Positions 8,898-37,469 of a stretch of DNA of 37,469 nt are shown here, piece by piece. The notes below the pieces were generated by a model that saw only the letters and a list, made by a program, of their open reading frames with translations, had not been told where the DNA came from and made no database searches. The translations under genes and the position numbers were made by a program. The DNA is from Oceanococcaceae bacterium (GTDB lineage: Bacteria; Pseudomonadota; Gammaproteobacteria; Nevskiales; Oceanococcaceae), in NCBI GenBank assembly GCA_041593295.1, contig JBFHON010000001.1:1-37469 (forward strand), given 5' to 3'. Each line of letters begins with the position of its first letter. Within the stretch, counting starts at the first letter, position 1.

Positions 8898-8947
8898 GGG
8901 GGAGCCGGTTGCAGGGCAGGGTGCAGAGTGTGCCCCGTTTGCACGCA

Positions 8948-8986
8948 AATACAAAAAAGGCGCGAGAACCGAAGTTGCTCGCGCCT
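8948..8986 (-). terminator. Rho-independent terminator downstream of pntB
   Basis: The minus strand reads AGGCGCGAG-caacttcggtt-CTCGCGCCT followed by TTTTTGTATTT. It begins about 20 nt after the pntB stop. Confidence 0.8.
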
Positions 8987-13852: not shown

Positions 13853-13950
13853 GATTCCAAAAGCGGTGGGTTTAGCGTCAGGCTACGCCCTGCGCATGAC
13901 GCTGACAAGAATGCCGCGCGGCGGTGGATTCAGGGCGCCCTGACAAAAGT

Positions 13951-13966
13951 TGGCAAGGCTATTGCT
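13951..13966 (+). promoter_or_regulatory. Candidate sigma-54 (-24/-12) promoter
   Basis: TGGCAaGgctaTTGCt matches TGGCACG-N4-TTGCW at all but one fixed position, with correct GG-to-GC spacing of 12. It is intergenic, points at the porin gene, and lies about 104 nt upstream of that gene's ATG. Confidence 0.45.
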
Positions 13967-14069
13967 TGGGACCTACCGAGGCGGTGTTCTGGGCGGGAGT
14001 CCCCAGGGAGAGAAGCAAGGAATGTCGCCAGCTTCAATTCAATACCTTGATTTCATAAGGACAGAAGAC

Positions 14070-14732
14070 ATGAGCAAGAAGCAAGTACTGGCAGCGGGAT
14101 TTCTGGCGGTTGCCGGAATGGGGATCGCAGCTCCGGCCATGGCCGAGCTTTCCGGTAACATCGGTGTTGCCTCGCAATACGTATTCCGCGGCGTCGTTTT
14201 CGGCGACCCCCAGGTCAGTGGCGGTGTGGACTACGCCGGCCCTGCAGGCTTTTATGCCGGTACCTGGATTTCCAGCGCGGGCGGCGAGCAGGAAGTCGAT
14301 CTCTACGGTGGCTGGGCCAATGACGTTGTTGATGTCGGCTACCTGTACTACTACTTCCCGGACGATATCGGCACCGCCGACGCTGGTGAAATCTATGGTG
14401 GTCTGAACTTCAATGCATTCTCGCTGTATGCCTACTATGCTCCGGCTGGTTTCAACGGCATCGCAGATGACGACTACATTTATGTGTCCGGAGACGTCGC
14501 TCTGCCGCTGACCGACAAGATCGAGCTGTCCCTGCACGTTGGTGCGACGGAAGGTCTGGGCGATGCGGTGAAGGATGACGACACCCTGATCGATTACGGC
14601 ATCACGGTCTCCTTCGGTGATCTGTTCATCTCCGCGACCGCCATCGATTACGACACCTTTGTGACCACCGGTCAGGTTGCCAACGAGCCGACCTTCACCG
14701 TGGGCTACGGCTGGAGCTTCGACGACCTTTAA
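14070..14732 (+). CDS. TorF-family (TIGR02001-like) small outer-membrane beta-barrel, paralog 1
   Basis: Start at MSKKQVLAAGFLAVAGMGIAAPAMA (signal peptide; AAGGA Shine-Dalgarno upstream). Family-typical SQYVFRGV motif just after the cleavage site. Gly/Tyr-rich alternating strands. Confidence 0.75.
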   Translation: MSKKQVLAAGFLAVAGMGIAAPAMAELSGNIGVASQYVFRGVVFGDPQVSGGVDYAGPAGFYAGTWISSAGGEQEVDLYGGWANDVVDVGYLYYYFPDDIGTADAGEIYGGLNFNAFSLYAYYAPAGFNGIADDDYIYVSGDVALPLTDKIELSLHVGATEGLGDAVKDDDTLIDYGITVSFGDLFISATAIDYDTFVTTGQVANEPTFTVGYGWSFDDL

Positions 14733-14882: not shown

Positions 14883-14917
14883 CCCGCATTCTTTTTTGGA
14901 ATGCGGGTCTTTTTATT
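14883..14917 (+). terminator. Rho-independent terminator
   Basis: CCCGCATTC-ttttttg-GAATGCGGG followed by TCTTTTTATT. It ends 3 nt before the first ATG of the next gene. Confidence 0.85.
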
Positions 14918-14919
14918 CG

Positions 14920-15705
14920 ATGAACAACACGAAAAAGCACGCCACCATGCCTAACAAGCTGATTGCCGGCCTGCTCGTGGCAGCGAGTGCAGTGACTTCA
15001 CTGACAGCTGCGGCGGACACGCTGGATACCTCGATCAACGTTCAGAAACGCATTGACGCTGACGCCCGTAACTCACAGGTCGCGATCAACAAGCTGGACG
15101 ATGAAGCCGACAAGCTGCTGACCGAGTACCGGGTCACCACCCGCGAGTCAGACAGCCTCAAACGCTACAACCGTCAGCTGGAGAAGCAGATCGCCTCCCA
15201 GGTGGAGGAAATGCAGTCGATCGAGCGGCAGCTGACCCAGATCAACGATGTGTCTCGGGAAGTCATCCCGATGATGCTGCGCATGATTGACACGCTTGAG
15301 AAGTTCGTGTCGCTGGACATGCCCTTCCTGATGGATGAGCGTAGCAAGCGCATTGATGCCCTCCGCGAGACGATGGACCGTGCGGACGTCACAACTTCCG
15401 AAAAGTACCGTCGTATCGTCGAGGCCTACCAGACCGAGATGGAATACGGCCGTACCATCGAAGCGTATGAAGGCGAGCTCGAACTGGGAGGCGCCAACAA
15501 GGTGGTGAACTTCCTGCGTGTTGGCCGTGTCGCGCTGATGTTCCAGACGCTGGACGCCAAGACCACCGGGTATTTCGATCCTGCGAGCAAGAGCTATGTC
15601 GCCGACAACGACTACAAGAACGCTGTTCGTAGCGGTCTGCGCGTTGCGCGCAAGCAAACTGCCCCTGACCTGCTGATCGTGCCCGTTGCGGCACCAGCCA
15701 AATAG
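14920..15705 (+). CDS. DUF3450-type periplasmic coiled-coil protein (TtpB-like, TonB2-system component)
   Basis: Signal peptide (LIAGLLVAASAVTSLTAAA) and a coiled-coil-rich sequence. It occupies the first position of a TonB2-type cluster. The start could be 14920 (MNNTKK) or 14947 (MPNKLIAG). The ORF-track start at 14896 lies inside the terminator hairpin. Confidence 0.75.
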   Translation: MNNTKKHATMPNKLIAGLLVAASAVTSLTAAADTLDTSINVQKRIDADARNSQVAINKLDDEADKLLTEYRVTTRESDSLKRYNRQLEKQIASQVEEMQSIERQLTQINDVSREVIPMMLRMIDTLEKFVSLDMPFLMDERSKRIDALRETMDRADVTTSEKYRRIVEAYQTEMEYGRTIEAYEGELELGGANKVVNFLRVGRVALMFQTLDAKTTGYFDPASKSYVADNDYKNAVRSGLRVARKQTAPDLLIVPVAAPAK

Positions 15706-15722
15706 ACGGATCGGAGTCCACC

Positions 15723-17063
15723 ATGTTGAAGAACGCCCTGATTGCCATGGCGCTGGTGCTGCCCGCAACCGCCATCGCACAACAAGCAGACCCCTTGCTG
15801 GAGCTGCTGCAACAAACCAAGAACGCCCGCGCTGCCGAAAAGGCAGCCAACCAGGCCCGTGAAAACCAGTTCCGCTCCCGGCGTGACCAGCAGGCCAGCC
15901 TGCTGAAAGCGGCCAAAGCCGAGCTGGCGACGCAGGAACGTCGTAGCGAGCAGCTGCTGTCCGACTTTGAAGTCAATGACAAGAAGCTGGCCGAGATGGA
16001 AGAATCGCTGAACCTGAAGATTGGTCAGCTCGGTGAAATGTTCGGTGTCGTCCGTCAGGTCGCCGGCGACCTGCGTGGCATCGCGCAGGGTTCCTATGTG
16101 TCCTCCCAGCCGGATGTTGACCGGGATGCCTTCCTTGACGAGTTGGGGCGTTCCAAGGAACTGCCGTCGATCGAAAAGCTGGAAGGCCTGTGGTTCGAAC
16201 TGCAGCGTGAAATGACCGAAAGTGGTCGTGTCGTGGCATACCAGACCAATGTGATCGGCCCGGACGGTACGGAAGAGCCGCGTGACGTTGTTCGCGTTGG
16301 TGCCTTCACCGCCGTCTCCGATGGCAAGTTCCTGGTCTGGCAGCCGGATACCCAGCGCCTGATCGAGCTGGAGCGTCAACCTCCAGGCCGTTTCGGCAGC
16401 ATGGCTTCCGACCTGGAAAGCGCCAGCTCCGGTGTGACCGGTATCGCACTCGACCCCACGCGTGGTGCACTGCTTTCGGTTCTGGTACGTGCGCCCAGCA
16501 TTGGCGAACGTGTCCAGCAGGGCGGCCTGGTTGGTTACGTGATTCTCGCCATCGGTGCGCTGGGTCTGCTCATGGCACTGGAGCGCCTGCTCACCCTGAC
16601 CTCGGTCGGTGGCAAGATGCAGAAGCAACGCTCCGAGCCGGCGCGTGACGACAACCCGCTTGGACGGGTATTGCTGGCCTATGAAAAAGACCCGAATGCC
16701 GACCTGGAGACCATCGAGTCCCGCCTGGATGAGGCAATCATCAAGGAAGTGCCGGATCTGGAAAAACGCCTGCCTGCTCTGAAGATCTTTGCTGCCGTCG
16801 CACCGCTGCTTGGTCTGCTGGGTACCGTGACCGGCATGATCCAGACCTTCCAGGCAATCACCCTGTTCGGTACCGGTGATCCCAAGTTGATGGCGGGTGG
16901 TATCTCGCAGGCACTGATCACGACGGTTCTCGGTCTGGTGGTTTCCATTCCCATGGTGATGCTGCATCAGTGGCTGAACGGGCGTTCCAAGGCAATGGTG
17001 CAGATTCTCGAAGAGGAGTCTGCGGGGCTGGTTGCTGAACGCACGGGCTCTGCAAAGGCCTGA
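15723..17063 (+). CDS. Long MotA/TolQ/ExbB proton-channel family protein (TtpC-like)
   Basis: 446 aa. Signal or TM segment plus a periplasmic coiled-coil N-domain. The C-terminal ExbB-type domain carries LLGLLGTVTGMIQTFQAI. Confidence 0.85.
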   Translation: MLKNALIAMALVLPATAIAQQADPLLELLQQTKNARAAEKAANQARENQFRSRRDQQASLLKAAKAELATQERRSEQLLSDFEVNDKKLAEMEESLNLKIGQLGEMFGVVRQVAGDLRGIAQGSYVSSQPDVDRDAFLDELGRSKELPSIEKLEGLWFELQREMTESGRVVAYQTNVIGPDGTEEPRDVVRVGAFTAVSDGKFLVWQPDTQRLIELERQPPGRFGSMASDLESASSGVTGIALDPTRGALLSVLVRAPSIGERVQQGGLVGYVILAIGALGLLMALERLLTLTSVGGKMQKQRSEPARDDNPLGRVLLAYEKDPNADLETIESRLDEAIIKEVPDLEKRLPALKIFAAVAPLLGLLGTVTGMIQTFQAITLFGTGDPKLMAGGISQALITTVLGLVVSIPMVMLHQWLNGRSKAMVQILEEESAGLVAERTGSAKA

Positions 17064-17068
17064 TCGAC

Positions 17069-17593
17069 GTGGAAGTTTTCACCGCAATCCGGGACTTCCT
17101 CGAAACCGGGGGCGCGGTCCTCTGGCTGATCCTGGCTGTGGCGGTACTGCTTTGGGCGCTCATCATTGAGCGGCTGATGTTCTACCGCCGCCAATTTCCG
17201 GCGCTGGCCAAAGGCGTGGTTACACGCTGGCGGCAGCGCACGGAGTTTTCCAGCTGGCAGGCCAAGCGCCAGCGGGAAGCCCTGGTCAGCGAGATCAACC
17301 GTACGCTGAAAGAGTCCATCAGTCTGATCAAGACGATCATCGCGCTGTGCCCGTTGCTCGGGCTGCTCGGCACCGTGACCGGCATGGTCCAGGTGTTTGA
17401 CGTGATGGCCGTGATGGGGACGGGTAATGCCCGCGCCATGGCGGCCGGTGTCTCCAAGGCGACCCTGCCAACGATGGCCGGGATGGTTGTTGCCCTCTCC
17501 GGGCTGTATTTCAGCTCCCATTTTGAACAAGTTGTACGCCGAGAAACCGAATTCCTGAACGACGAACTCGGCCTACACGAACAAGAGAAATAA
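17069..17593 (+). CDS. exbB: ExbB (MotA/TolQ/ExbB proton channel)
   Basis: 174 aa, three TM segments, motif LLGLLGTVTGMVQVFDVM. GTG start 5 nt after the upstream stop. Confidence 0.88.
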   Translation: MEVFTAIRDFLETGGAVLWLILAVAVLLWALIIERLMFYRRQFPALAKGVVTRWRQRTEFSSWQAKRQREALVSEINRTLKESISLIKTIIALCPLLGLLGTVTGMVQVFDVMAVMGTGNARAMAAGVSKATLPTMAGMVVALSGLYFSSHFEQVVRRETEFLNDELGLHEQEK

Positions 17594-17596
17594 GCC

Positions 17597-18004
17597 ATGC
17601 GACGCAAACATCACGGCGCAGCGGAAGAAGCCGAAATCGACATGACCCCGATGCTGGACATCGTGTTCATCATGCTGATCTTCTTCATCGTGACAACCAG
17701 TTTCGTCAAGGAAACCGGGATCGATGTCTCACGTCCAAGCGCCAACACCGCAGAAAAGAAAGAGCGTGGAAACATCCTGATCGCCATCAAGCCCAATGGT
17801 GATGTCTGGATGGACAAGCGCAAGGTCGAGCTGCGCGCAGTTCGTGCCAACACCGAACGGATGCACGCAGAAAATCCGGAAGGTTCCGTGGTGATCATCG
17901 CGGACAAGGAATCGCAAACGGGTGTGCTGGTCGAGGTGATGGACCAGGTCCGTTCAGCCGGCGTGTACAACGTTTCGATTGCTGCAAACAACAACGCGGA
18001 ATAG
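17597..18004 (+). CDS. exbD: ExbD/TolR biopolymer transport protein
   Basis: 135 aa. DMTPMLDIVFIMLIFFIV N-terminal TM segment and an ExbD-type periplasmic domain. Confidence 0.9.
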   Translation: MRRKHHGAAEEAEIDMTPMLDIVFIMLIFFIVTTSFVKETGIDVSRPSANTAEKKERGNILIAIKPNGDVWMDKRKVELRAVRANTERMHAENPEGSVVIIADKESQTGVLVEVMDQVRSAGVYNVSIAANNNAE

Positions 18005-18016
18005 GCGGGCCGATCC

Positions 18017-18649
18017 GTGATGAGATTCCTTGCAGCACTGGGCGGGGCAACCGTTGTAGCCCTGTTCCTGTTCTGGGTAATGCAATACCTGGTGCTGGGG
18101 CAGGCCAAGCAGGTTGATAAGGCACCGGGGCTGGGTGGCGTGGATTTCGTGCGTCTGAAGCGCGATGAAAGCACGGAAACCCGGCAGCGCCAGGTACCCA
18201 AGAAGCCACCACCGCCGAAGAAGCCACCACCGCCACCGAAGATGAAGGTGGCACAGGCCAGCAAACCCAACCCGCAACCTCAGCAGTTCAACGTGCCAAA
18301 CGTGAAATTGCCGGTGGGCGCTGGTGGCGGTCCGTTCCTGGGCAGCTACCAGAAAGGCTCGGACTTCCAGGGGGATGGGGAACTGATCCCGCTGGTCCGG
18401 ATTGCCCCGCAATACCCGCGGAACGCCGCGCGTGACCGGATCGAAGGCTGGGTGAAACTGGAATTCACGATCAACCCGGACGGAACCGTATCCAACCCCA
18501 AGGTGTCTGAAGCACAGCCGCGACGGGTTTTCGACTCGGCCGCTCGCCGGGCGATCCTGAAGTGGAAATTCAAACCTCGCATCGTTGACGGGAAACCGGT
18601 GGCTCACCAGGCCACACAAACGATCGAATTCAAGCTGGCGGCTGAATGA
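18017..18649 (+). CDS. tonB: TonB energy transducer
   Basis: N-terminal TM segment, Pro/Lys spacer (KKPPPPKKPPPPPKMK), and a C-terminal TonB domain (PQYPRNAARDRIEGWVKLEFTINPDGTVSNPKV). Confidence 0.9.
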   Translation: MMRFLAALGGATVVALFLFWVMQYLVLGQAKQVDKAPGLGGVDFVRLKRDESTETRQRQVPKKPPPPKKPPPPPKMKVAQASKPNPQPQQFNVPNVKLPVGAGGGPFLGSYQKGSDFQGDGELIPLVRIAPQYPRNAARDRIEGWVKLEFTINPDGTVSNPKVSEAQPRRVFDSAARRAILKWKFKPRIVDGKPVAHQATQTIEFKLAAE

Positions 18650-19866
18650 TGCGTATGACATTCATTGCACGACTGGTTGCCGTACTGCTGGTGACCTGGG
18701 GCGGCTTCGTTTCGGCACAGACCCTGTCCGAGGCCACCTATCGCAGGTTGACAACCATTCACGAGCTCATCGGTGAAGAGGAGTATGCAGAAGCGCTGCA
18801 GAAACTCGACAAGCTGATGCCGTCGACCAAGTACAGCCCGTATGAAACGGCGATGGTCCTGCAGACCTACGGGTTTGTCTGGGCGCAACGTGGCGACTAC
18901 CGCAAGGCTGCCGACTACTTCCGCAAGGCCATCGACCTGGGCGCTCTGCCTGAGCAGCAGGTCGAGAGCATGAAGTACAACCTGGGTCAGTTCCAGGTGG
19001 CGGTCGAGGAGTATCGCGAAGGTGTCAAAACCCTCGAGGATTACTTCGCCACGGCGAAAAACCCGATCCCGCCGGACGCCCGGGTTCTCCTGGCCACGGC
19101 CTACGCGCAGTTGAAGCAGTACCGCAAGGCACTGCCGCACCTCACGCGGGCGATCAGGGAACATTCGGATCCGAAGGAGATGTGGTTCCAGCTGAAGCTG
19201 GCGATGCACTACGAAACCAACGACTACAAGTCGTGTGCAAACACCTTGCTCGAGATGATCTCGCGTTTCCCGCTGAAGGATCAGTACTGGAAACAGCTGT
19301 CCGGCATGTTCATGGAGCTGAAAAAGGACGAGGAAGCGCTGGCGATCCTTGCCCTGGCCGACCGCAAGGGTTTTCTTGATGACGAAAAGGAAGTCAAGAA
19401 CCTCGGCAACATGTACCTGTACCTGGACATTCCGTACAAGGCAGCCAAGATCGTCTCTGACGGGATGCGCAACGGTGTGATTTCCGGGAACGAGGACAAC
19501 TACGAGTTGCTTTCCAACGCCTGGATCGGCGCACGGGAAACCGACAAGGCGATCGATGCACTGTCCAAGGCGGCCGAGCTGACCGATGATGGTGAACTGG
19601 TGCTGCGGCTGGCCTACCTGTACGTGGAACGTGAGGATTGGGGCAAGGTGATCCCGACCCTGGAGCAGGCGCGCAAACTGGGTGTGGACAAGCCGGGTGA
19701 AGCGGCCATGCTGCAAGGCATTGCCGCAGCCGAACTGGGGCGCTTCGACGAAGCGCAAGCCGCCTTCCGCGTTGCCGCCAAGCATGAAGGCACCAAGGAA
19801 GAGGCGCTCGCCTGGCTGAACCATGCTCGTAGCCTGCAGGCGGAACTGGAACAGGACGACAGCTGA
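18646..19866 (+). CDS. TPR-repeat protein (TtpD-like, TonB2-system associated)
   Basis: 406 aa with a signal peptide and repeated TPR-like helices. ATGA start/stop overlap with tonB. Confidence 0.75.
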   Translation: MMRMTFIARLVAVLLVTWGGFVSAQTLSEATYRRLTTIHELIGEEEYAEALQKLDKLMPSTKYSPYETAMVLQTYGFVWAQRGDYRKAADYFRKAIDLGALPEQQVESMKYNLGQFQVAVEEYREGVKTLEDYFATAKNPIPPDARVLLATAYAQLKQYRKALPHLTRAIREHSDPKEMWFQLKLAMHYETNDYKSCANTLLEMISRFPLKDQYWKQLSGMFMELKKDEEALAILALADRKGFLDDEKEVKNLGNMYLYLDIPYKAAKIVSDGMRNGVISGNEDNYELLSNAWIGARETDKAIDALSKAAELTDDGELVLRLAYLYVEREDWGKVIPTLEQARKLGVDKPGEAAMLQGIAAAELGRFDEAQAAFRVAAKHEGTKEEALAWLNHARSLQAELEQDDS

Positions 19867-27860: not shown

Positions 27861-27903
27861 GGACTGCGAAAATTCGCGTTATCAACCACTGGGAAGCAAA
27901 ACA

Positions 27904-28620
27904 ATGAAAAAGACACTCTTGGGTCTGGCCCTGGTCTCCGTCACCGGAACCGCGCTGGCCAGCAGCGAAATCAACCTGGGTATCTCCTCGGAGTACGTGT
28001 TCCGCGGCGTTCCACAAAGCAACGGTGCTCAGGTCTGGGGCTCGTTCGACTACTCCATGGACTCCTGGGGTACCTACCTCGGCATGTGGGTTTCCAACTC
28101 CGGACTCTCCGGCAACGAGGAAGTGGACGTCTACGGTGGTTACGCGCTGAGCCTCGGTGAAACCCTGTCGCTGGACTTTGGTGGCATTGGCTACTTTGAT
28201 CCCAGCGCTCCGGAAAGCTCGGTGCCCAACAACATCGGCGAAGCCTATGTCGGTGTGAACTGGGGTCGTCTGAACTCCTACCTGTACTACGGCTTTGGTT
28301 CGACCGCAGCCAAGGAAGACGAGTACGGCTATTTCGAGGCCAACTACGAAATCGAACTGCTGGCGGATGCGCATCTGCGCGTGCACGGCGGCTACTTCCT
28401 GGGTCTGGGTGACTACTACGACCTGTTCGCTGATGACGATTACTTCGACTACGGCGTCAGCTTCATCAAGGACTATGGCCTGGCCGGACAGATCGCCCTG
28501 GCGATCACGGCGACCAGCATCGATGCCACACACGGTTTCAATGCGATCAGCCCGTCCTTCGAGAGTTCACGTCCGCAGTTCACCGTGGGCTGGAGCCGGA
28601 GTTTCGGATCCGCGTTCTGA
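27904..28620 (+). CDS. TorF-family (TIGR02001-like) small outer-membrane beta-barrel, paralog 2
   Basis: Starts at MKKTLLGLALVSVTGTALA. SEYVFRGV motif, Gly/Tyr-rich strands, and a C-terminal aromatic residue (..FGSAF). It begins 43 nt after oppF. Confidence 0.75.
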   Translation: MKKTLLGLALVSVTGTALASSEINLGISSEYVFRGVPQSNGAQVWGSFDYSMDSWGTYLGMWVSNSGLSGNEEVDVYGGYALSLGETLSLDFGGIGYFDPSAPESSVPNNIGEAYVGVNWGRLNSYLYYGFGSTAAKEDEYGYFEANYEIELLADAHLRVHGGYFLGLGDYYDLFADDDYFDYGVSFIKDYGLAGQIALAITATSIDATHGFNAISPSFESSRPQFTVGWSRSFGSAF

Positions 28621-28640
28621 GCGTAATCAGGCGTACGACA

Positions 28641-28668
28641 AAGGGAGCCTCAGGGCTCCCTTTTTTTA
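28641..28668 (+). terminator. Rho-independent terminator
   Basis: AAGGGAGCC-tcag-GGCTCCCTT followed by TTTTTAT, 20 nt after the porin stop. Confidence 0.9.
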
Positions 28669-28779
28669 TGCGCCCTGTCTGATTGACCTGCATCATGGCG
28701 TGCCGCGCGGGAATGAGGTTCAGTAGCATAAGGAGCGGCCTTTGGTCTGCCGCTGATGACAACTGATGAGGAGACCGTC

Positions 28780-29238
28780 ATGAATTTTCAACAGATCAGT
28801 GACGTCGTGAAATGGTCCGCCGATTTTCACGCCGAACTCGGCAGCGCATACACCCGGATGGTTGAAGTCACCGAAGTGCCGCGTGTGCGCGAGGTGCTGC
28901 GTTACCTCGCCACGCACGAGCAGGAAATTGAACGCGGCCTGCGTGGTCATCTGCAGCAGACCGAGCCGGGGTTGCTGGGCGGCTGGGTGCGCGGTGCACC
29001 GTCGTACGACAAGCTGCAGTCGTTGCAGAAATTGCGCAGCAGGATGGATGCGGAGACCGTCGATGGGGTGACGAGCCAGGCCGTCGATATTCACAAGGCG
29101 TTGCAGGACATGTACCAGGAACTGGCGGGCTATGCCGAACTGCCGGAAAGCCGTGAGTTGCTGAAAAACCTGCGTGACCATGAAGAGGCGGAAACCCGCC
29201 GCATGGTGCGGGATATCGGCTGGTACGAAAGTACCTGA
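28780..29238 (+). CDS. Hypothetical helical protein
   Basis: 152 aa, counted from MNFQQISD. This start is preceded by GAGGAG with a 6-nt spacer; the ORF-track start at 28756 lacks a Shine-Dalgarno sequence. Charged, predicted all-helical, with HEQE and DHEEAE patches. No family recognised. Confidence 0.55.
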   Translation: MNFQQISDVVKWSADFHAELGSAYTRMVEVTEVPRVREVLRYLATHEQEIERGLRGHLQQTEPGLLGGWVRGAPSYDKLQSLQKLRSRMDAETVDGVTSQAVDIHKALQDMYQELAGYAELPESRELLKNLRDHEEAETRRMVRDIGWYEST

Positions 29239-29350
29239 CGCTCGCAGGGTTCCGCACCGTGGGGCCCTGGCCGCCATCCAGGGCGGTGCCGGTCGGCGCC
29301 TTCTCTCTCCTTTTCAGACAGGTGGGCGCCCCAGGCTGTCGCTCAACCGC

Positions 29351-30391
29351 TCAGGTCAGGCTGCTGCGCAAACTGACGTCCAGCACGCCCGGAGGTGGTG
29401 GGGTGGCAGGGCGATCCTTGCTGCCCGGGTGCCAGTCCAGCGTGTCCAGCCATTGCCCCAGCGGCAAGGCACGCAGCTCGACCCGATCGCGGGCCTGCAG
29501 CCGCTTCGGCAGGAACAACCTGAAACCGCAGCGTGCAGGGAGGTTCAGGCCGGGTAACGGCGGCGGCGTCTCGCCGGTACAGCAGAACCCGGCATGTTCG
29601 CCATTGATCAGAACCTGCAGTGGCAGGTGTGGCGTCAAACCCGGGTTGAAGGCCACGCCTTCTACCTGCTGCGGGCCCAGACGGGTAATGGCGCCGTAGA
29701 TCCACTCCCCGGGTGGCCGCTGGGCAAGGAAGTCCAGACGGGCCTTGAGCGTACGGTTGGCCTGAATGAACAGGTCGTAATCCACCTTCTCGCGTTGCTT
29801 GCCAGCGGCTGGCAGCTGATATTTCTTCCGGTCGTAGCCGCGTTCCTTGTGTTCCTCGCGTTCCGGGTTGACGTTGAGCTGTTGTGGCTGCGCATCAATC
29901 GGGTACAGGGAGCGAAACAGTTCCAGGCTGTCTTCGTAGCGGTTGGTCACCCCGACGAACCCCAGCAGTTGGACAGGGATGCCGTTGAGCATGCGGGATT
30001 GCTGGCCCGTGCCTGAGGCGGACAGCGCGAACTCCTCCAGCGAGCCGGTATACCCCTGAACGCGTTTGCGATGCTCCCAGTGGGAAATCACCTGCTCATG
30101 GGGGTGGCGGACGAATACCGTCAGTTCCCAGGGGGCGAATTGCGCCGCGTAGCGACTGAGCTGGAAGTGTCCACACAGCACCTGCCAGTCACGCTGTGCA
30201 GCCGGTTGGGCCACACGACCCGCCAGATTCTCAGTGGTTGTCGGGCTGTCCGCACCATAATCGCAGAGCAGCGTGTTTTCCGGGAGTACCCGCTCCAGTT
30301 CCATGCGAAACGAGGTTCCGGCGGTTTTCGGGATGTGACAGAAAAGTAGCGCCATGGCGATCAGGGAAAGGTGGGGTGCGGCGGGCGTCAC
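29351..30391 (-). CDS. Sulfotransferase family protein with unknown C-terminal extension
   Basis: The N-terminal CHIPKTAGTSF matches the HIPKTGGTS PAPS 5'-phosphosulfate-binding loop of bacterial sulfotransferase family 2. About 120 C-terminal residues are unassigned. The start is either GTG 30391 or ATG 30355 (MALLFCHIPK). Confidence 0.65.
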   Translation of the reverse strand: MTPAAPHLSLIAMALLFCHIPKTAGTSFRMELERVLPENTLLCDYGADSPTTTENLAGRVAQPAAQRDWQVLCGHFQLSRYAAQFAPWELTVFVRHPHEQVISHWEHRKRVQGYTGSLEEFALSASGTGQQSRMLNGIPVQLLGFVGVTNRYEDSLELFRSLYPIDAQPQQLNVNPEREEHKERGYDRKKYQLPAAGKQREKVDYDLFIQANRTLKARLDFLAQRPPGEWIYGAITRLGPQQVEGVAFNPGLTPHLPLQVLINGEHAGFCCTGETPPPLPGLNLPARCGFRLFLPKRLQARDRVELRALPLGQWLDTLDWHPGSKDRPATPPPPGVLDVSLRSSLT

Positions 30392-30475
30392 AACTGGCAG
30401 ACATGGACAAGCAACCCGGCGGCAAGCCGCAGAATTCTAGGAGGTTTGTCATGCCTTCGCCGGCCCGCGGAAGGT

Positions 30476-31486
30476 TCAGAAGAAAAACTCGTCGGCAAGC
30501 ATCGGGGCTGGCGGCGGTTTGGGGACGCTGTCCTGGGGAACAAAATCGGGGACTGTCAGCCGGATGCGCTCGATCGGGTCGGTGGGAATCTGCGGCAGTT
30601 TGGCCAGGCGTTCCAGTTCCGGGCCGATGCCGCGACCGTTTGCGAGCTGAATGGACAGGCCGGGACGGGCATTGAGCTCGAGCACAAGCGGGCCCAGGTT
30701 GCGGTCCAGCACGACGTCGACACCCAGGTAACCCAGTGGGGCCAGTTCGTAGCAGCGGGTTGCCAGTTCGAGCAGGCGTGGCCAGTGCGGAATCTGGAAC
30801 TGGGCCAGCGCCGTACCGGTGTCCGGGTGGTGCGTGGTCGGCGCGTTATGGTGAACGCCGGAGATGGTCCGGCCGCTGCGCAGGTCGATCCCGGCCCCGA
30901 CCGCGCCCTGGTGCAGGTTGGCCTTGCCATCGGATTCGCGCGTGGGGAGCCGTACCATGGCGCAGACGGGCACGCCCCGAAACACCAGCGTGCGGATGTC
31001 CGGCACGCCGTGGTGAGTGATCGGCGCAAATACCGGGTCGAAATCGACGCAGTATTCGATCATGGCCTCGTCCGGCAGCCCGCCCAGGCTGAACATGCCG
31101 GAGAGGATGTTGGACACATGGTGCTGCAGCACCTCGTGGCTCAGCGGTTCGCCGCTGGCGCGCAGGTAGTCCTTGCCCTGCCGGCCGCGGACCACGATGA
31201 TGCCGTCGCCGCCGGCGCCATGAGCCGGTTTGATGACGAAGTTCTGGTGCGCAGCAAGGGTTTGCTCCAGCGCATTCAGGTCGTGCTGGATGCGCGCCAC
31301 GCCGTACAGTTCGGGTACGGCGATGCCTGCGGAATGGGCCAGCTCCTTGGTGCACAGCTTGTTGTCCACCAGCGGGTACAGGCGGCGGGCATTGAACTTG
31401 GCGATGTAGTCGCCGTTGCGACCGTTCATGCCGATGATGCCGGCCTTGCGCAGGCGCCGCGAGGGCAGTGCGTCGAGCCAGCTCAT
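30476..31486 (-). CDS. RimK-related ATP-grasp ligase (alpha-L-glutamate ligase-like protein)
   Basis: 336 aa. ATP-grasp features FVIKPAHGAGGDGI, ESDGKANLHQGAVG, and GVDVVLDRNLGPLVLELNARPG (Mg-binding E-x-N). The N-terminus GIIGMNGRNGDYI is typical of the TIGR02291-like subfamily. Confidence 0.85.
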   Translation of the reverse strand: MSWLDALPSRRLRKAGIIGMNGRNGDYIAKFNARRLYPLVDNKLCTKELAHSAGIAVPELYGVARIQHDLNALEQTLAAHQNFVIKPAHGAGGDGIIVVRGRQGKDYLRASGEPLSHEVLQHHVSNILSGMFSLGGLPDEAMIEYCVDFDPVFAPITHHGVPDIRTLVFRGVPVCAMVRLPTRESDGKANLHQGAVGAGIDLRSGRTISGVHHNAPTTHHPDTGTALAQFQIPHWPRLLELATRCYELAPLGYLGVDVVLDRNLGPLVLELNARPGLSIQLANGRGIGPELERLAKLPQIPTDPIERIRLTVPDFVPQDSVPKPPPAPMLADEFFF

Positions 31487-33003
31487 GCTTTCTTGTCGGG
31501 CAGCCAGACGCTGCGAAAGCGCCAGTATTCGCTGAGCCGGTAGCCGGTGTAGCGGCCCAGCAGCAGCGTGACTGCGAGCAGGACCAGCAGGCTTTCGGGG
31601 AACAGGCTCACCAGGTGCTGCAGCCAGGCATTGCTCATGACGATAAAGGCCAGGGCCGCGACCGCGAGGCTGCCCAGCCCCTGCGTGATGGCATCCCGCG
31701 AGCCGTGCTCCTCCCAGACGATCGACATGCGTTCAATCGTCATGGCGAGAATCACCATCGGGAACAGGGCAATTGACAGCCCGCGCTCGAAGCCCAGCCG
31801 GTGGCTGGCGATGCTCAGCAGCAACATCAGGATGATGACCATGATCAGCACTGCGGCCAGACGCGGCACCAGCAACAGCTTCAGGTACTCGAGCCCGAAG
31901 CGCAGGGCGAGACCAATGGCCACCACCGAGGAGAACAGCACGCAGCCCCACAGCAACTCGGTTTCGCGGAAGGCCAGGGAAATCAGCACGGGCATGAAGG
32001 TGCCGAAGGTGCGAATGCCCACGACATTCCGCAGCAACACCACCAGCAGGGCACCGAACGGCACCATCAGCAGGATGGTGTAGGTGTTCTGGACATGCAG
32101 GGGCAGCCCCAGCAACGAGACCTGGGCCAGCGGCTGGTGCAGGTCGCGGGCCAGTTCAACCGTGCGCGATTCGGTGCGACGGACCGAGAAGCGCAAATCC
32201 ACATCGCTGCCGCCGTCCACGCTCAGAGTGCGGCCCGGGTGGGTCTGCCAGGTCAGGAAATTCTCCGGCCGGCCCTGTTCGCCGGTGACCGGGTTGAACG
32301 GAATCCACTGCTGCTCATTGTGGACCTCCAGCCAGGGCTCCAGCCGTGCATTGAGCAGGCCGTGCCGCAGCACCAGGCCATAGACCACGCGGGCCGGTAT
32401 GCGGGCGCCGGCGAGGATGTAGGCCACCTGCTGTGCGCGCGCAGCCGGGGTGCGGGCCTCTTCCCGCAGCAATTTGACCGCCGGGTCGCTGCTGTTCTGC
32501 CGCAGCTCCAGGATCAGCTGTCGGGCAAAGGACGCGATATCTGCGGAATGCGTACGTACATCCTGCAACAGGGATTGAATGGCTGGCGCATACAGTTCGG
32601 GGTAGTCCGGTACGGCCGGGTAGCCGGGGAAAGCGTCCGGTCGCTCGCGGGGTGTCTCGCGGGGGTTGACGGTCAGCCGGTAGTACAGCGCCTGCGGGCC
32701 AAAGGCCGAGCGGGTGGACAGCAGCAATGTGCGCTGACCGTCGATCCGGTCCTCGGCCATGCCGAAGTTGCGAACCACGAAGTCCTCGTCGAGGACATCA
32801 AACCCGGGCGGTTTTTCCGGCAGCGCCATCTGCAGCTTGACCCGTCCTTCGCCGCGAAAGCTGGCGCGGGCTTCGATGGTCCACACCGAAGAGCGTGCGT
32901 CCGGCTCCAGCGGCAGGCCCAGGCGGGTCACCTTGTAGTACATCACGCCCAGCGCGACAGCACAGAGCAGGAAGGCGAGGGCGCCGACGGGGGATATTTT
33001 CAC
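31483..33003 (-). CDS. 7TM membrane protein with N-terminal inactive transglutaminase-like domain
   Basis: One N-terminal TM segment and an extracytoplasmic domain of about 280 aa with a TGase-like core. The catalytic positions are substituted (no Cys before RIPARVVYG; EPWLEV instead of H-x-W-x-E; WIPFNP instead of FDP). About seven C-terminal TM segments follow. GTG 33003 overlaps the upstream stop as GTGA; an alternative TTG start lies at 33042. Confidence 0.8.
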   Translation of the reverse strand: MKISPVGALAFLLCAVALGVMYYKVTRLGLPLEPDARSSVWTIEARASFRGEGRVKLQMALPEKPPGFDVLDEDFVVRNFGMAEDRIDGQRTLLLSTRSAFGPQALYYRLTVNPRETPRERPDAFPGYPAVPDYPELYAPAIQSLLQDVRTHSADIASFARQLILELRQNSSDPAVKLLREEARTPAARAQQVAYILAGARIPARVVYGLVLRHGLLNARLEPWLEVHNEQQWIPFNPVTGEQGRPENFLTWQTHPGRTLSVDGGSDVDLRFSVRRTESRTVELARDLHQPLAQVSLLGLPLHVQNTYTILLMVPFGALLVVLLRNVVGIRTFGTFMPVLISLAFRETELLWGCVLFSSVVAIGLALRFGLEYLKLLLVPRLAAVLIMVIILMLLLSIASHRLGFERGLSIALFPMVILAMTIERMSIVWEEHGSRDAITQGLGSLAVAALAFIVMSNAWLQHLVSLFPESLLVLLAVTLLLGRYTGYRLSEYWRFRSVWLPDKKA

Positions 33004-33545
33004 GGGGCGCCTGCAGATGCGTCGGAGAGTGAAGCCGGGCAACGGGCTTCGCGGGTAAAGGTCCTGCCCGCATCAACCGGTGCAAACTTTTCCAGGAAGC
33101 GGCGTCCCAGCAGGACGGGGTAGATGAAGCGACTGCGGTCCACCAGCGTGAACTCGGTGACATGGCGCTCCCCGCCGAGGCAGAAGGCCAATTCCACGAC
33201 CGGTCGGCGGTCGTACTCGCCTTCGTGTTCCTTGATTCGCACGCCACGAATGCGTGGCCGTTCCAGTATCAGGCGATGCTTCTTGCCGTTGGCATCTTCC
33301 AGCTCAACCCGGAAACGCACCCATTTCTGGCCATCGCGGGTGAAGGTTTCGATTCTGTCGGCCTGCAGCGAGGAGGTGCGGGCGCCGGTGTCCAGCTTGG
33401 CCTTGACCGGGATGGTGTCCGGCCCGAGCAGGATCTTTTCGACCCACCCCACGGCCGCGGTCGGCTTGGCGGTCAGTGCGGTCGGAAGAAGCAGGAGGAA
33501 TATGAGCAGTGCCGGCAGGTGCCGGCGTGCAGGAGTCGCAGCCAT
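33000..33545 (-). CDS. Secreted retropepsin-like protease (DUF785 / annotated ATP-dependent zinc protease family)
   Basis: 181 aa. Signal peptide LLIFLLLLPTALTA, aspartyl-protease-like AKLDTGARTSSL motif, and an AAGGA Shine-Dalgarno sequence. Confidence 0.8.
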   Translation of the reverse strand: MAATPARRHLPALLIFLLLLPTALTAKPTAAVGWVEKILLGPDTIPVKAKLDTGARTSSLQADRIETFTRDGQKWVRFRVELEDANGKKHRLILERPRIRGVRIKEHEGEYDRRPVVELAFCLGGERHVTEFTLVDRSRFIYPVLLGRRFLEKFAPVDAGRTFTREARCPASLSDASAGAP

Positions 33546-33671
33546 TGTGTCCTTGGTCCATCACCAGGTCAGTGAGTCTTGCTGAACGTTCTGACGTCCG
33601 GGAATGGTAAAGCATTCACCGGCGCAGGCTGCGGTTTGGCCGGGTGGGCGGCGTTTTCCGCGGACGCAAGT

Positions 33672-33707
33672 GCCGGCAGGGCTGCCGCAAAGCATGCCCC
33701 TGCCGGC
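33672..33707 (-). other. 10-bp GC-rich stem-loop between the Big_2 lipoprotein gene and the DUF785 gene
   Basis: GCCGGCAGGG-16 nt-CCCTGCCGGC, with no U-tract. Confidence 0.5.
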
Positions 33708-33723
33708 CGCGTGCGGTGCGGTC

Positions 33724-35025
33724 TCAGGGTTGGTAGGGGTACAGGGCGGCCTCGAATTCCAGGGCGCCGAGATCATCGTTGTCGCTGCTGCTCGCCCGAA
33801 CCGTGATGTTCGCGCGCTCATTGCTGGAACTGACCAGGCCGGCATTCGAATAGCTGCTCCCGACCGAGCCACCGCTACCGTCACTGACGATCCAGTTCAG
33901 GTGCCGGGTGATGGCACGTTCGCTGCCATCTTCAAAGGTGCCACTGACCTCGAGCGCATAGGTGTCGGGGTAGGTGATGCTGAGCGCATCGGTTGCCGAA
34001 TCCATGGCGACGAGTTCGAGCGCGGCCAGTTCCCAGGATTTGCTGCGAAACACCTCGTCCCGTCGTTCCAGGCTGATATCCAGGTACACCGGGTCCGCGT
34101 CGTCCAGTTCCTCGTCATCCGTTGCCAGCGGCTCCACCACCAGTGCATATTCGCGCGTGTCGGTCTCGATGATGGTCAGTGCCTGCAGTTGCGCCGCATC
34201 GGAAACTTCCACCGCGATCTGGTTGGTGAGATTCTGTTCGCTGCTGCCATCGGCGAACTGCGCCCACAACTGCACGGTTTCGCTGTAGCCCAGCGGAAGC
34301 ACGCCGTTGTCCGTGGCCTCATAGCGCAGGGCAAAGCCCGTGGGTTCCTCGATGGTGAGCTCCTGCGTGGCATAGCGACCGCATTCCGGCAGCTGGGCCA
34401 CCACCCGTACCGGTGTCTGCGCATCGGCGGAGCCGGCGACCAAGCGTCCGCTGTAGTCCACATCCATGTAGGCATTGTTGGCTGCGGGCTCGACCTCCCA
34501 GCTGACCAGGTCCGTGAGGTAGTAGGTGTCCGGGTTACCTTCCACTTCACCGACGAGGGCGAAATTCTGACGTGTCCGGGCTGCCACATGGGCCAGTTCG
34601 GGCTCGATGCGGATGTCACTCAGCGGCAGAACTTCCACCACGATGCTGGCCGTGAAGTCCAGATACTCTGCGCGAACGGTGGCAGTGCCGGGGCGTCGAG
34701 CGATGACGACCCCCGCGCCATAGACCGTGCGCCCATCGGTGCCTTCCGGGATCAGGTCGCCATTGCTGACGCTCACCACACCGGGGTCGCTGGAATCCCA
34801 GCTGACACGCTCGGAGAAATCCCCGCTGCTGGAATCATCGCCGTCGAAGGTCACGATGGCATTCAGGTTGAAGATCGAACACTCGCTCACTTCGGCCACG
34901 CTGCTGTCGTCGCTGTAGGTGACCGACAGCTTGCTCGGGTAGGTGCCTTCGCCGATGCTGGAACACGCGCTCAGCAGCACGGCCCCCAAAGCCAGCATGG
35001 CCGCAGGTTGTGGCAGCGGAAACAT
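33724..35025 (-). CDS. Acidic lipoprotein with Big_2-like bacterial Ig domains
   Basis: Starts at MFPLPQPAAMLALGAVLLSAC-SS (lipobox LSAC). At least three Big_2-like signatures are visible (VSWDSSDPGVVSVSNGDLIP, LVSWEVEPAANNAYMDVDYSGRLVA, LNWIVSDGSGGSVGSSYSNAGLVSS). Confidence 0.7.
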   Translation of the reverse strand: MFPLPQPAAMLALGAVLLSACSSIGEGTYPSKLSVTYSDDSSVAEVSECSIFNLNAIVTFDGDDSSSGDFSERVSWDSSDPGVVSVSNGDLIPEGTDGRTVYGAGVVIARRPGTATVRAEYLDFTASIVVEVLPLSDIRIEPELAHVAARTRQNFALVGEVEGNPDTYYLTDLVSWEVEPAANNAYMDVDYSGRLVAGSADAQTPVRVVAQLPECGRYATQELTIEEPTGFALRYEATDNGVLPLGYSETVQLWAQFADGSSEQNLTNQIAVEVSDAAQLQALTIIETDTREYALVVEPLATDDEELDDADPVYLDISLERRDEVFRSKSWELAALELVAMDSATDALSITYPDTYALEVSGTFEDGSERAITRHLNWIVSDGSGGSVGSSYSNAGLVSSSNERANITVRASSSDNDDLGALEFEAALYPYQP

Positions 35026-35044
35026 GGTTCGACGCTCCGCCTGC

Positions 35045-36244
35045 TTAACCGGGGAAGAACAGGACACGGTGGTTATTGCGGTCGGTGACATACAGCACGC
35101 CGTCGCGCAGCGACAGCCCGGTGGGCGAGTTCAGGGTCTGTTCCGAGGCCTCATCGTCGGAGTCCCCGTCCAGATCGATGTCGTTTTTCAGCAGGCTGCT
35201 GAAATCGTCCTGGCCGTAAACGTCGATGGCCAGGGGCTGGTTGGCGATCGGGAACGAGTCGAATTCCAGGACCCGGTTGTTACCGGCATCGGCGACATAG
35301 AAGCGGGTGCCATCCGAGGTGATGCCAAACGGGGTGCGCAGTTGCGACTGGCTGACTCCGGCGCTGCTGCGCGAGAAATCCGACTGGCCAATGACATAGG
35401 TCGCTTCTTCCCCGGCGGAGCGGGGCAGCTGCTGCCAGTAGAGCACGCGGTTGTTGCCGCTGTCGGCGACCAGCAGGCGAAAGCCGTCGCTCCACAGCCC
35501 GGCAGGATTGGTCAGGCCTGCCTCTTCGTCATCGGCTTCGACGGTGTCGAAGTCCGGCTGCCCGACAACGACGTCGGCGGGCGCACCATTGCTGTCAGGC
35601 AGGGTGTTCCAGACCAGCACACGGTGGTTGCGCTGGTCGGACACCAGCAGGCGCCCGGCGGCGATCTCGGCCCAGACCGGGTAGGACATCCGGCTGGCAC
35701 CGCTGCCCGGTTCGGCACTGGTGAAATCATCCTGGCCTACGACCACGTCGGGCGGCGTGTTGCTGGAGGGCAGGCTGTTCCAGATCAGCACGCGGTTGTT
35801 GCCCGCATCGGTGACGGCCAGCTTGCCATCGCCAATGGTTACGTGTGTGGGCAGTGCCAGCGCCGCGCCGGAGGTGCCCGCAGCAGAGCTGCTGAAATCA
35901 GCCTGGCCGAGCACGAAGTCCGGAGCCTGGCTCAGCGTATCCGGAATCCGGTTCCAGCCGAGCACCCGGTTGTTGCTGAAGTCGGCGACATAAAACAGGT
36001 TGCCGTCGGTGGCGATGCCACCCTGGGGCTGACCCAGGCCCAGGGCGTCCGTGCTGCCGCCGCGGTTGGAGTACAGCTCGGCGAAATCTGCCTGGCCGAC
36101 GACCATGAAGGCCTCCGGGCGTTCGTCATCGTCGTCCGTCGAGGACGAACTTGTCGTGTCGCAGGCGCTGAGCAGCGCGAGCGGCAGGAACAGAGAGGCG
36201 AAGACCGGTACGCGTGCACGGCCAAATACAGACTGCAGATCCAT
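35045..36244 (-). CDS. NHL-repeat six-bladed beta-propeller lipoprotein
   Basis: Starts at MDLQSVF...LALLSAC-D (lipobox, Asp at +2), followed by an SSSSTDDDDE linker. Six repeats of about 55-60 aa each carry GQ(A/D/S/P)DF ... (V/Y)(A/T/S)D..N(N/H)RVL.(W/F). GGGAG Shine-Dalgarno sequence upstream. Confidence 0.75.
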   Translation of the reverse strand: MDLQSVFGRARVPVFASLFLPLALLSACDTTSSSSTDDDDERPEAFMVVGQADFAELYSNRGGSTDALGLGQPQGGIATDGNLFYVADFSNNRVLGWNRIPDTLSQAPDFVLGQADFSSSAAGTSGAALALPTHVTIGDGKLAVTDAGNNRVLIWNSLPSSNTPPDVVVGQDDFTSAEPGSGASRMSYPVWAEIAAGRLLVSDQRNHRVLVWNTLPDSNGAPADVVVGQPDFDTVEADDEEAGLTNPAGLWSDGFRLLVADSGNNRVLYWQQLPRSAGEEATYVIGQSDFSRSSAGVSQSQLRTPFGITSDGTRFYVADAGNNRVLEFDSFPIANQPLAIDVYGQDDFSSLLKNDIDLDGDSDDEASEQTLNSPTGLSLRDGVLYVTDRNNHRVLFFPG

Positions 36245-36381
36245 GTGGTTACTCCCAGATTGACGTCGAACCGCCCGGACCCGGACGGCAATGTGGGGTT
36301 CAACGCGGGATTCGCCCGATTCCGTCGCACGAATTTTCCGGGGCAGGCTGAGCAGGGAACAGGCCGGTTGCAGTCTGCTTC

Positions 36382-36387
36382 TATAAT
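36382..36387 (+). promoter_or_regulatory. Consensus -10 hexamer TATAAT, 6 nt upstream of the ATG at 36394
   Basis: Exact TATAAT, but no convincing -35 at 16-18 nt spacing. The position implies a leaderless or near-leaderless transcript if it is functional. Confidence 0.35.
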
Positions 36388-36393
36388 CGCCGG

Positions 36394-37469
36394 ATGCTGA
36401 ACCGCCCCAATGTGATGCACGGCTGGCGCCTGGCGCTTGCTGTCCCGATGCTCGTGCTCGCTGGAGCCGCCGTGGCCCTGGATGAGAGCGACCTGGAAAT
36501 CGACACCGCAAAGGCGGTTCCTCCGTCGTCGGCCCCGGCCCCTGAACCCTCGCTCCCGATCATGGTTTCCCCCGTGCCGGTGCCTACGCCCCTGCCGGGC
36601 CCGGAGCCGTTGCAGATTCTGGAAGGGGTTGTCGCGCCCGGCGAGGTCCGCCGGCTGGCCTGGCGCACCGGCTTTGGCTACGGGCTGGTCGACGAGCCGG
36701 TACCGGTGATCGTCGCGCATGGTGCCAAGCCGGGGCCCACCCTGTGTCTGACGGCTGCGGTCCACGGGGATGAACTGAACGGGATCGAGATCGTGCGACG
36801 GGTCCTGGCAGGGCTCGAGGCCTCCCGGTTGCGGGGTACGGTGATTGGCGTGCCGATCGTGAACGTGCACGGTTTTCAGCGCCGCAGCCGTTACATGCCG
36901 GATCGCCGTGACCTGAACCGCTACTTCCCTGGTGACCCCAAAGGTTCACTGGCTTCGCGGGTGGCGCACAGTTTCTTCACCCGTATCATCCAGCGCTGCG
37001 ATTACCTGGTGGACCTGCACACCGGCTCCTTCCAGCGCACCAACCTGCCGCAACTGCGGGCCGACCTGCGCAATCACGAAGTGGTCGATATCACGCGACT
37101 GTTCGGTGGAGTGACCGTACTGCACAGTCCCCCCGCGGCCGGGACCTTGCGCAAGGTGGCCACCGCGGCGGGGATCCCTACCGTCACCTTCGAGGTCGGG
37201 GAGCCGAACCGCCTGCAGGCGCAGGATGTGGGCCGCGCGGTCAGCGGGGTGCAGTCCCTGCTGGCCGGGCTGGAGATGTTTGGCAGTGAGGCGCGCACGG
37301 ACCGTCGGCAGCCGGTCTTTTACGAGTCCCGCTGGGTGCGGGCGGACCGTGGCGGCATCCTGTTCAGTACCGTCAAGGTCGGGCAGCAGGTCAAGGTGGG
37401 CGAGGTGCTGGGCACCGTCACCGACCCGCTGACCAATGTCTATATCGAAGTGCGGGCGCCGATCGCCGG
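36394..37469 (+). CDS. Secreted succinylglutamate desuccinylase/aspartoacylase (AstE/AspA, M14-like) family deacylase, 3'-truncated by the window end
   Basis: Not in the supplied ORF track because it is open-ended. My frame-1 translation from 36394 has no stop through 37469 (358 full codons). Signal peptide (WRLALAVPMLVLAGAAVA), Pro-rich linker (PPSSAPAPEPSLPIMVSPVPVPTPLPGPEP), then family motifs AAVHGDELNG, DLNRYFPG and VDLHTG. Confidence 0.8.
   Translation, partial: MLNRPNVMHGWRLALAVPMLVLAGAAVALDESDLEIDTAKAVPPSSAPAPEPSLPIMVSPVPVPTPLPGPEPLQILEGVVAPGEVRRLAWRTGFGYGLVDEPVPVIVAHGAKPGPTLCLTAAVHGDELNGIEIVRRVLAGLEASRLRGTVIGVPIVNVHGFQRRSRYMPDRRDLNRYFPGDPKGSLASRVAHSFFTRIIQRCDYLVDLHTGSFQRTNLPQLRADLRNHEVVDITRLFGGVTVLHSPPAAGTLRKVATAAGIPTVTFEVGEPNRLQAQDVGRAVSGVQSLLAGLEMFGSEARTDRRQPVFYESRWVRADRGGILFSTVKVGQQVKVGEVLGTVTDPLTNVYIEVRAPIA

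Follow-up and report, generated by a model that had tools for sequence, protein, structure and literature searches.

The window analysed here, a stretch of 37,469 nucleotides (nt) from an Oceanococcaceae bacterium (contig JBFHON010000001.1 of assembly GCA_041593295.1), carries in its last part, from 29351 to 37469, seven genes that a first-pass annotation had put forward as a candidate uncharacterised peptide-modification system of the envelope. Our analysis indicates that this region is in all likelihood a mosaic, consisting of a core formed by the rloABC operon and a gene for an AstE/AspA-like hydrolase, of a cassette of two lipoprotein genes and of a sulfotransferase-like gene, the latter two having become neighbours of the core by recent rearrangement and not being rlo components. 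The central trio is already known as rloABC and is modelled in NCBIfam, and the extra genes are a lineage-specific juxtaposition of independent modules. The useful result is therefore a negative one for the proposed seven-gene system, together with one concrete lead, the secreted AstE/AspA-type zinc hydrolase. All seven genes were present at the place and on the strands described, and a reading of the N-termini bore out the statement that export signals or transmembrane segments are found in five of the seven products. The family calls held for the ligase, the seven-transmembrane (7TM) pseudo-transglutaminase, the DTG protease, the NHL protein and the AstE/AspA protein, all with hidden Markov model scores above cutoff, whereas the sulfotransferase and Big_2 calls could be upheld only via motifs, homologues and predicted folds.

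The trio lies on the minus strand. The gene rloA (33000-33545) encodes a secreted retropepsin-like aspartic protease, matching PF05618 at 3.6e-37, with the signal peptide MAATPARRHLPALLIFLLLLPTALTA and D52 in KLDTGA; rloB (31483-33003) encodes an inner-membrane protein of 506 aa with a periplasmic inactive transglutaminase domain (PF14400, 6e-39) and a 7TM domain (PF14402, 2e-97), both far above cutoff; and rloC (30476-31486) encodes a cytoplasmic, alpha-L-glutamate-ligase-like ATP-grasp protein devoid of a signal peptide, which scored 436 bits on TIGR02291 against a cutoff of 314 bits, matched PF14397 at 3.8e-91 and reached 42 bits on the RimK family model, whose cutoff is 143. The rloB gene shares 4-bp overlaps with both rloA and rloC. 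RloB homologues at E ≤ 1e-10 numbered 5606, and no invariant Cys was found in the transglutaminase region across 14 of them. NCBIfam holds models for RloA, RloA2, RloA3, RloB and RimB, and the window proteins match below the curated cutoffs: RloB scored 403 bits against the "exception" cutoff of 900, and RloA scored 164 bits on RloA3 (cutoff 210), 109 on RloA2 and 102 on RloA, all sub-cutoff. The RloB, RloA and RloA2 models are of the "exception" type, which we read as narrow, and RloA3 is an equivalog; the sub-cutoff scores of RloA and RloB are read by us as distance from Pseudomonas and not as non-membership. The nearest solved structures for the window RloA are 9g59 and 9g58. Its KLDTG retains both the catalytic Asp and the Lys that lies two positions ahead, and by our reading of the alignment the Arg residues in RRPV and DRS would correspond to the published Glu-binding arginines. 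Because the three families, the gene order, the 4-bp overlaps, the KLDTG and the arginines match, the window trio is, as judged from these features, a distant orthologue of the known and partly characterised rloABC operon.

In Pseudomonas aeruginosa this operon comprises RloA (PA14_41690), RloB (PA14_41710) and RloC (PA14_41730), and the bacterium has three RloA paralogues, all of them retropepsin-like proteases that are secreted (Lormand et al., mBio 2025, PMC12239564). In vitro, RloA cuts glutamate runs of 8 or more as well as RimB substrates, and does not cut a DDDDEEEDDD stretch (PMC12239564). A mutant lacking all three RloA proteases does not grow in low-osmolarity medium, where the cells die, and also shows biofilm, beta-lactam and cell-shape defects; these defects are suppressed by deleting rloB or rloC (PMC12239564). 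The expectation that ligase, pseudo-transglutaminase and protease form one unit is thus answered by a published operon, and the proposed logic of a builder paired with an eraser fits what was published, namely suppression of the triple protease mutant by loss of either rloB or rloC and cutting of poly-Glu by RloA in vitro (PMC12239564); for the trio plus AstE this logic also agrees with the neighbourhoods described below. The description of the trio as uncharacterised no longer applies. The system matters for osmotic tolerance, biofilm formation and beta-lactam sensitivity of P. aeruginosa. A transposon screen in Shewanella showed in addition that disruption of a 7TM inactive transglutaminase increases membrane-vesicle production. 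The likeness of the window trio to the P. aeruginosa operon extends to the families, their order, the tight packing (the 4-bp overlaps in the window) and the KLDTG; the window, known from sequence only, differs by its sub-cutoff NCBIfam scores for RloA and RloB and by the adjoining gene for a secreted AstE-like protein.

To see which genes accompany the trio, an RloB alignment was used as anchor and 80 loci from different species were collected with up to 10 kb of flank per side; the upstream flank of the trio reaches 3 kb or more in 66 of them and the downstream flank 1.5 kb or more in 68. Presence of each gene was scored by tblastn with the window proteins at E<1e-5. RloC was adjacent to RloB in 80/80 genomes, RloA in 62/80 and an AstE-like protein in 17/80; the order rloA-rloB-rloC on one strand was found in 62/80. 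The sulfotransferase, the Ig-like (Big_2-like) lipoprotein and the NHL lipoprotein were each adjacent in 0 of the 80. The linkage of these three genes to the trio, which the first-pass annotation had offered as new, is therefore contradicted by the neighbourhood comparison, a kind of result that the annotation itself had named as a refutation, whereas the AstE-like peptidase is indeed a recurrent neighbour, directly adjacent in the 17 loci.

About 17 of the 80 loci contain rloB-rloC with no upstream rloA in reach, 15 of these having more than 5 kb of flank (L012, L015, L042, L051, L060, L063, L064, L066, L072, L074, L075, L077-L080, L084 and L086). By their records they include Steroidobacter, Woeseiaceae, Ectothiorhodospiraceae, Chromatiaceae/Chromatiales, Aquisalimonas and unclassified Gammaproteobacteria. 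In these organisms the protease may be encoded elsewhere in the genome, and the AstE-like gene is absent from all of these rloA-less loci.

The AstE/AspA-family zinc hydrolase gene of the window is divergent from the trio, on the plus strand, and runs from 36394 or 36415 to beyond 37469, off the window end; in the near-identical contig L002 the protein has 412 aa. It matches PF24827 at 146.6 bits, above the curated cutoff, and its HGDE, DLNRYFPGD, DLHTG and EVGE motifs align to the structure 3cdx, whose corresponding residues we take to form the zinc site (His/Glu/His) and to provide the catalytic Glu. Against four models of characterised AstE, AspA and DoeB enzymes it remained far below cutoff throughout (for DoeB, 74 bits vs 403). 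Characterised AstE/AspA members are generally cytoplasmic catabolic enzymes. The window protein shares with the N-acyl-amino-acid hydrolases of this family (succinylglutamate desuccinylase, aspartoacylase and DoeB; PDB 3cdx and 6twl) the PF24827 domain and the zinc and catalytic motifs, and it differs by a signal peptide followed by a Pro-rich linker and by scores far under every equivalog cutoff. A perfect TATAAT stands at 36382-36387 on the plus strand and, because it ends 6 nt before the first possible start codon at 36394, the second ATG, at 36415 and directly before the signal peptide, may be the real start.

Besides the 17 loci of the survey, the AstE-like gene adjoins the trio in 4 further close relatives. 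In the 17 it is always the immediate neighbour of the trio, in 7 divergent upstream, in 3 co-directional upstream and in 7 downstream of rloC, and by their records the AstE-bearing loci belong to Oceanococcus, Litorivivens, Oleiphilus, Hahellaceae, Porticoccaceae, Oceanicoccus and others. Most of the linked proteins with a readable N-terminus begin with a signal peptide, and a Pro/Thr-rich linker often comes next. In an unbiased test, in which all open reading frames (ORFs) up to 6 kb from the trio were clustered all against all, the AstE-like protein was the most recurrent neighbour beyond the trio itself and the antisense shadow ORFs of the trio; the other recurrent clusters, which are probably a trace of common descent, look by eye like housekeeping functions (e.g., a PepP-like aminopeptidase and a ZapA-like protein). 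On this comparison of neighbourhoods, the secreted AstE-like hydrolase is apparently the sole true recurrent extra partner of rloABC. That it is an overlooked fourth Rlo component in marine Gammaproteobacteria, removing terminal glutamates, is a tentative proposal to which we give somewhat less than an even chance.

The best-surviving alternative, which we nevertheless consider unlikely, is that the AstE-like gene is merely syntenic and encodes a secreted N-acyl-amino-acid hydrolase that has no relation to the trio, so that rloABC alone would be the functional unit. It would account for the adjacency in only 17 of the 80 genomes, for the fact that the gene is unmentioned in the experimental paper on P. 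aeruginosa (PMC12239564) and for scores far under the cutoffs of every characterised AstE, AspA and DoeB model. It sits less well with an adjacency kept through three gene orders and several families of marine Gammaproteobacteria, always as immediate neighbour and, in the 80-locus survey, only where RloA is present, with the leading rank among the non-trio neighbours in the clustering, with the export of the protein to the compartment of RloA, and with the correlation between the identity of the linked AstE to the window copy and the identity of RloB (r=0.83). A full-text literature search returned nothing useful on a linkage between RimK and succinylglutamate desuccinylase, earlier comparative genomics of ATP-grasp neighbourhoods having been outside its reach.

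The core module, that is the divergent gene for the secreted hydrolase and the translationally coupled rloA-rloB-rloC operon, could be envisaged to work as follows. Cytoplasmic RloC would build a glutamate-rich product, which RloB, with its 7TM domain and periplasmic pseudo-transglutaminase domain, would export or present at the inner membrane; periplasmic RloA would then cut the product internally and, where present, the secreted AstE-like enzyme would strip terminal glutamates or short remnants, a role proposed because its relatives hydrolyse N-acyl-amino acids. Trimming by RloA and the AstE-like enzyme would prevent a toxic build-up of the product. If the AstE-like enzyme does remove terminal glutamates in the periplasm, this would support the export of a poly-glutamate species by RloB and RloC, and would provide a second enzyme for trapping the Rlo substrate. 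With the RimK/RimB system of ribosomal protein S6 glutamylation the window shares an ATP-grasp glutamate ligase and a retropepsin-like protease trimming poly-Glu; there, however, RimB is cytoplasmic and RimK modifies RpsF, whereas the window has an exported protease and an exported AstE-like enzyme, and in addition a 7TM pseudo-transglutaminase. A published Klebsiella ATP-grasp enzyme belongs to a different family.

The two lipoprotein genes lie between the AstE-like gene and rloA. The first (35045-36244, minus strand) encodes a six-bladed NHL beta-propeller lipoprotein of 399 aa with the lipobox LLSAC, which matches PF01436 at 91 bits and whose gene contains six DNA repeats about 174 nt apart. 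The second (33724-35025, minus strand) encodes a lipoprotein of 433 aa, again with the lipobox LLSAC and with about four predicted Ig-like (Big_2-like) domains. The latter had no Pfam match at E≤0.01, and PF02368 (Big_2) remained unmatched even at E≤1, but Big_2 was matched by three of its five detectable homologues. Its structural model (pLDDT 75) is all-beta, with about four tandem Ig-like sandwiches, and has structural matches to LigA, gp210 and SbsC at E 1e-9 to 1e-14.

At 71-80% RloB identity none of this pair, nor the sulfotransferase, is found at the rlo locus: in L087, L088 and L089 (80, 76 and 71% RloB identity) AstE and rloA diverge directly from each other, no lipoprotein gene lying in the gap, and the genes found after rloC are unrelated ones, for an alpha/beta-hydrolase, for a hybrid histidine kinase and for a Sel1/SH3 protein. 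L088 rejoins the synteny of the window further on, with a TorF-family porin and Dpp-like ABC ATPases, and the slot after rloC is therefore variable. Even at 88% RloB identity, in L174, AstE is directly divergent from rloA with no lipoprotein gene (its N-terminal AstE fragment ends in EPLRILEG, which resembles EPLQILEG of the window). Among the loci covering this position the NHL/Ig-like pair stands between AstE and rloA only in L001-L004, whose rloA is identical to that of the window.

Outside the rlo context the pair recurs in L090, L091, L094 and L095, all of them lacking rlo genes at this place. The NHL orthologues in L090 and L091 are 62% and 52% identical to the window protein, and in both loci the pair stands beside genes for a HAMP sensor kinase and a DUF4382 lipoprotein (4424-5266 in L090, 105-974 in L091), accompanied in L091 by an OmpR-type regulator. 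Of the distant Ig-like homologues, the two that lie on usable contigs, at 34% and 33% identity, are encoded directly after these NHL orthologues. A metagenome scan with an NHL alignment gave 80 loci, in which rlo, AstE and sulfotransferase genes were found near NHL homologues in none, and the Ig-like gene followed NHL in the two closest matches having downstream sequence. On comparative evidence the pair is a separate two-gene cassette, NHL first and Ig-like second, that is not part of the rlo system, and its company hints at a separate, uncharacterised envelope module made up of the pair, the DUF4382 protein and the sensor kinase. We propose that the insertion of this cassette, which elsewhere has a sensor kinase and a DUF4382 lipoprotein for company and in one of two loci an OmpR-type regulator as well, took place between AstE and the conserved region upstream of rloA and is confined to the immediate lineage of the window. 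A search for flanking repeats as a sign of a mobile element turned up nothing beyond the repeats inside the NHL gene and weak chance pairs. The acidic segments that follow the cysteines of the lipoproteins were considered as RloA substrates and rejected, as they are Asp-rich and RloA needs at least 8 Glu.

The region upstream of rloA contains a 15-nt motif, GAATGCTTTACCATT, with the arms GAATG/CATTC, at 33603-33617 on the minus strand, positioned about 58 nt ahead of the rloA start codon. Exact copies occupy the same place in L174 (350-364), L087 (9335-9349) and L001-L004, so that the motif survives unchanged to 80% RloB identity, whether the lipoprotein insertion is there or, as in L174 and L087, is missing. 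We regard it as a candidate element, operator or promoter, of rloABC or of the divergent AstE gene. Because it is kept, the pair would have been inserted on the AstE side, leaving the upstream region of rloA intact.

The sulfotransferase-like gene (29351-30355, minus strand) encodes a cytoplasmic protein of 334 aa with a predicted C-terminal Ig/FN3-like domain; alignment of homologues places its true start at the ATG giving MALLFCHIPKT. On Sulfotransfer_2 it scored 18 bits (E=0.003), under the 22-bit cutoff, and 9 of 11 homologues matched this family at E≤1, the best at 1.2e-9. The 5′-phosphosulfate loop for binding the sulfate donor PAPS (PKxGT), here HIPKTAGT, is kept by 90% or more of the 11 homologues, and the 3′-phosphate motif, R83...S91, by every one of them. 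The AlphaFold model (pLDDT 84) had Teg12, SULT1A2 and 3rnl as top Foldseek matches, with probabilities of 0.96-0.99 though with TM-scores of only 0.28-0.40. Like the Sulfotransfer_2 carbohydrate sulfotransferases of polysaccharide clusters, the window protein has PAPS-binding motifs and a similar context of its homologues, and its predicted fold may be the same; it differs by a score under the Pfam cutoff, the extra C-terminal domain and the lack of glycosyltransferase neighbours in the window.

Homologues with 43%, 37% and 28% identity (L006, L092 and L093) lie inside glycosyltransferase-rich polysaccharide clusters, and in Shewanella youngdeokensis the cluster with the homologue is near CysD/CysN-like sulfate-activation genes. 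In L005 a homologue with 59% identity stands in a row of sulfatase, PhyH and sulfotransferase genes. The context is that which would be expected of a glycan sulfotransferase and not of a peptide modifier. At the rlo locus the order is rloC, PhyH, sulfotransferase in L174 and rloC, sulfotransferase, porin in L175 (94% RloC identity); the window has no PhyH gene, only 120 nt lying between rloC and the sulfotransferase gene. The PhyH-family dioxygenase genes directly before the sulfotransferase gene in L174 (3573-4394) and L005 (3032-3853) encode proteins with 61% mutual identity. We envisage that, in the clade with at least 88% RloB identity, the sulfotransferase gene came to lie downstream of rloC, at first accompanied by a PhyH gene, and on comparative evidence it is a lineage-specific neighbour of rloC and not an rlo component. 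A sulfatase gene of the window (7485-8954, minus strand; PF00884 and SGSH_C) encodes a protein 59% identical to the L005 sulfatase (1500-2969), and because the latter is near a sulfotransferase homologue, this suggests that an ancestral cluster of sulfatase, PhyH and sulfotransferase genes has been split up in the window genome.

Several observations weigh against the mosaic reading. The six minus-strand genes are co-directional with short gaps of 19, 178 and 120 nt, and terminator and promoter scans together with RNA folding brought up nothing above shuffled controls, and no convincing terminator, in these three intergenic gaps, the hairpin after the Ig-like gene folding no better than shuffled sequence; since clear terminators are missing, the gaps are short and the genes are co-directional, read-through co-transcription of the six genes could occur in this lineage. 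The sulfotransferase gene is kept beside rloC in several related genomes (75-100% sulfotransferase identity), and the contexts known outside this lineage number only four for the sulfotransferase and only four for the lipoprotein cassette, two of the latter on contigs shorter than 3 kb. As for the core, the AstE-like gene is adjacent in only about one fifth of the sampled RloB loci and is not an obligate component, and the roles given to RloB, RloC and AstE are inferences.

These observations lend some weight to the proposal of the first-pass annotation, in which the seven genes form one self-contained envelope system for peptide modification or signalling, with sulfation as a second modification; the lipoproteins would then act as scaffolds or targets. 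Its strong points are the tight co-directional packing lacking clear terminators, the export or membrane location of five of the seven products and the persistence of the sulfotransferase beside rloC in several related contigs. We regard it as very improbable, however, because the three extra genes occur near RloB in none of the 80 anchored genomes, all three are missing at 71-80% RloB identity and the lipoprotein pair already at 88%, each extra module has its own different context elsewhere, the retained motif upstream of rloA suggests independent control, and the sulfotransferase is cytoplasmic and belongs to a family that sits in glycan clusters. Just as improbable in our view is a lineage-specific seven-gene variant arisen by co-option, in which the lipoproteins, inserted into the divergent promoter region of AstE and rloA, and the downstream sulfotransferase would be co-expressed with rloABC and would share its glutamate-rich product in the envelope as the thing they act on or anchor. 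Scarcely credible is a sulfated-glycan surface module composed of the sulfotransferase, the distant window sulfatase and the two lipoproteins and flanking rlo by chance, which would explain the homologue two genes from the L005 sulfatase and the polysaccharide clusters around more distant homologues, but not that the NHL/Ig-like cassette was never found with sulfotransferase homologues in the fetched loci, that the window sulfatase is 21 kb away, and that sulfotransferase and cassette entered the locus at different lineage depths. We retain the mosaic reading, which makes the sulfotransferase and the cassette of lipoprotein genes ordinary neighbours specific to this lineage.

An Rfam scan of 28600-37469 returned no RNA family, and PADLOC gave no defence-system match among the eight proteins tested. 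An ORF of 160 aa (28756-29238, plus strand), convergent with the sulfotransferase gene, had no match in Pfam, NCBIfam or PADLOC; in L174 and L175 the sulfotransferase gene is followed by C-terminal fragments of this ORF, and it was undetected in the 76% relative L088. The window further contains two genes for putative porins of the TorF/Gcw_chp family on the plus strand (13950-14732 and 27901-28620), one of which is followed by a cluster of DUF3450, ExbB-like, ExbB-like, TonB and TPR genes (14896-19866, plus strand).

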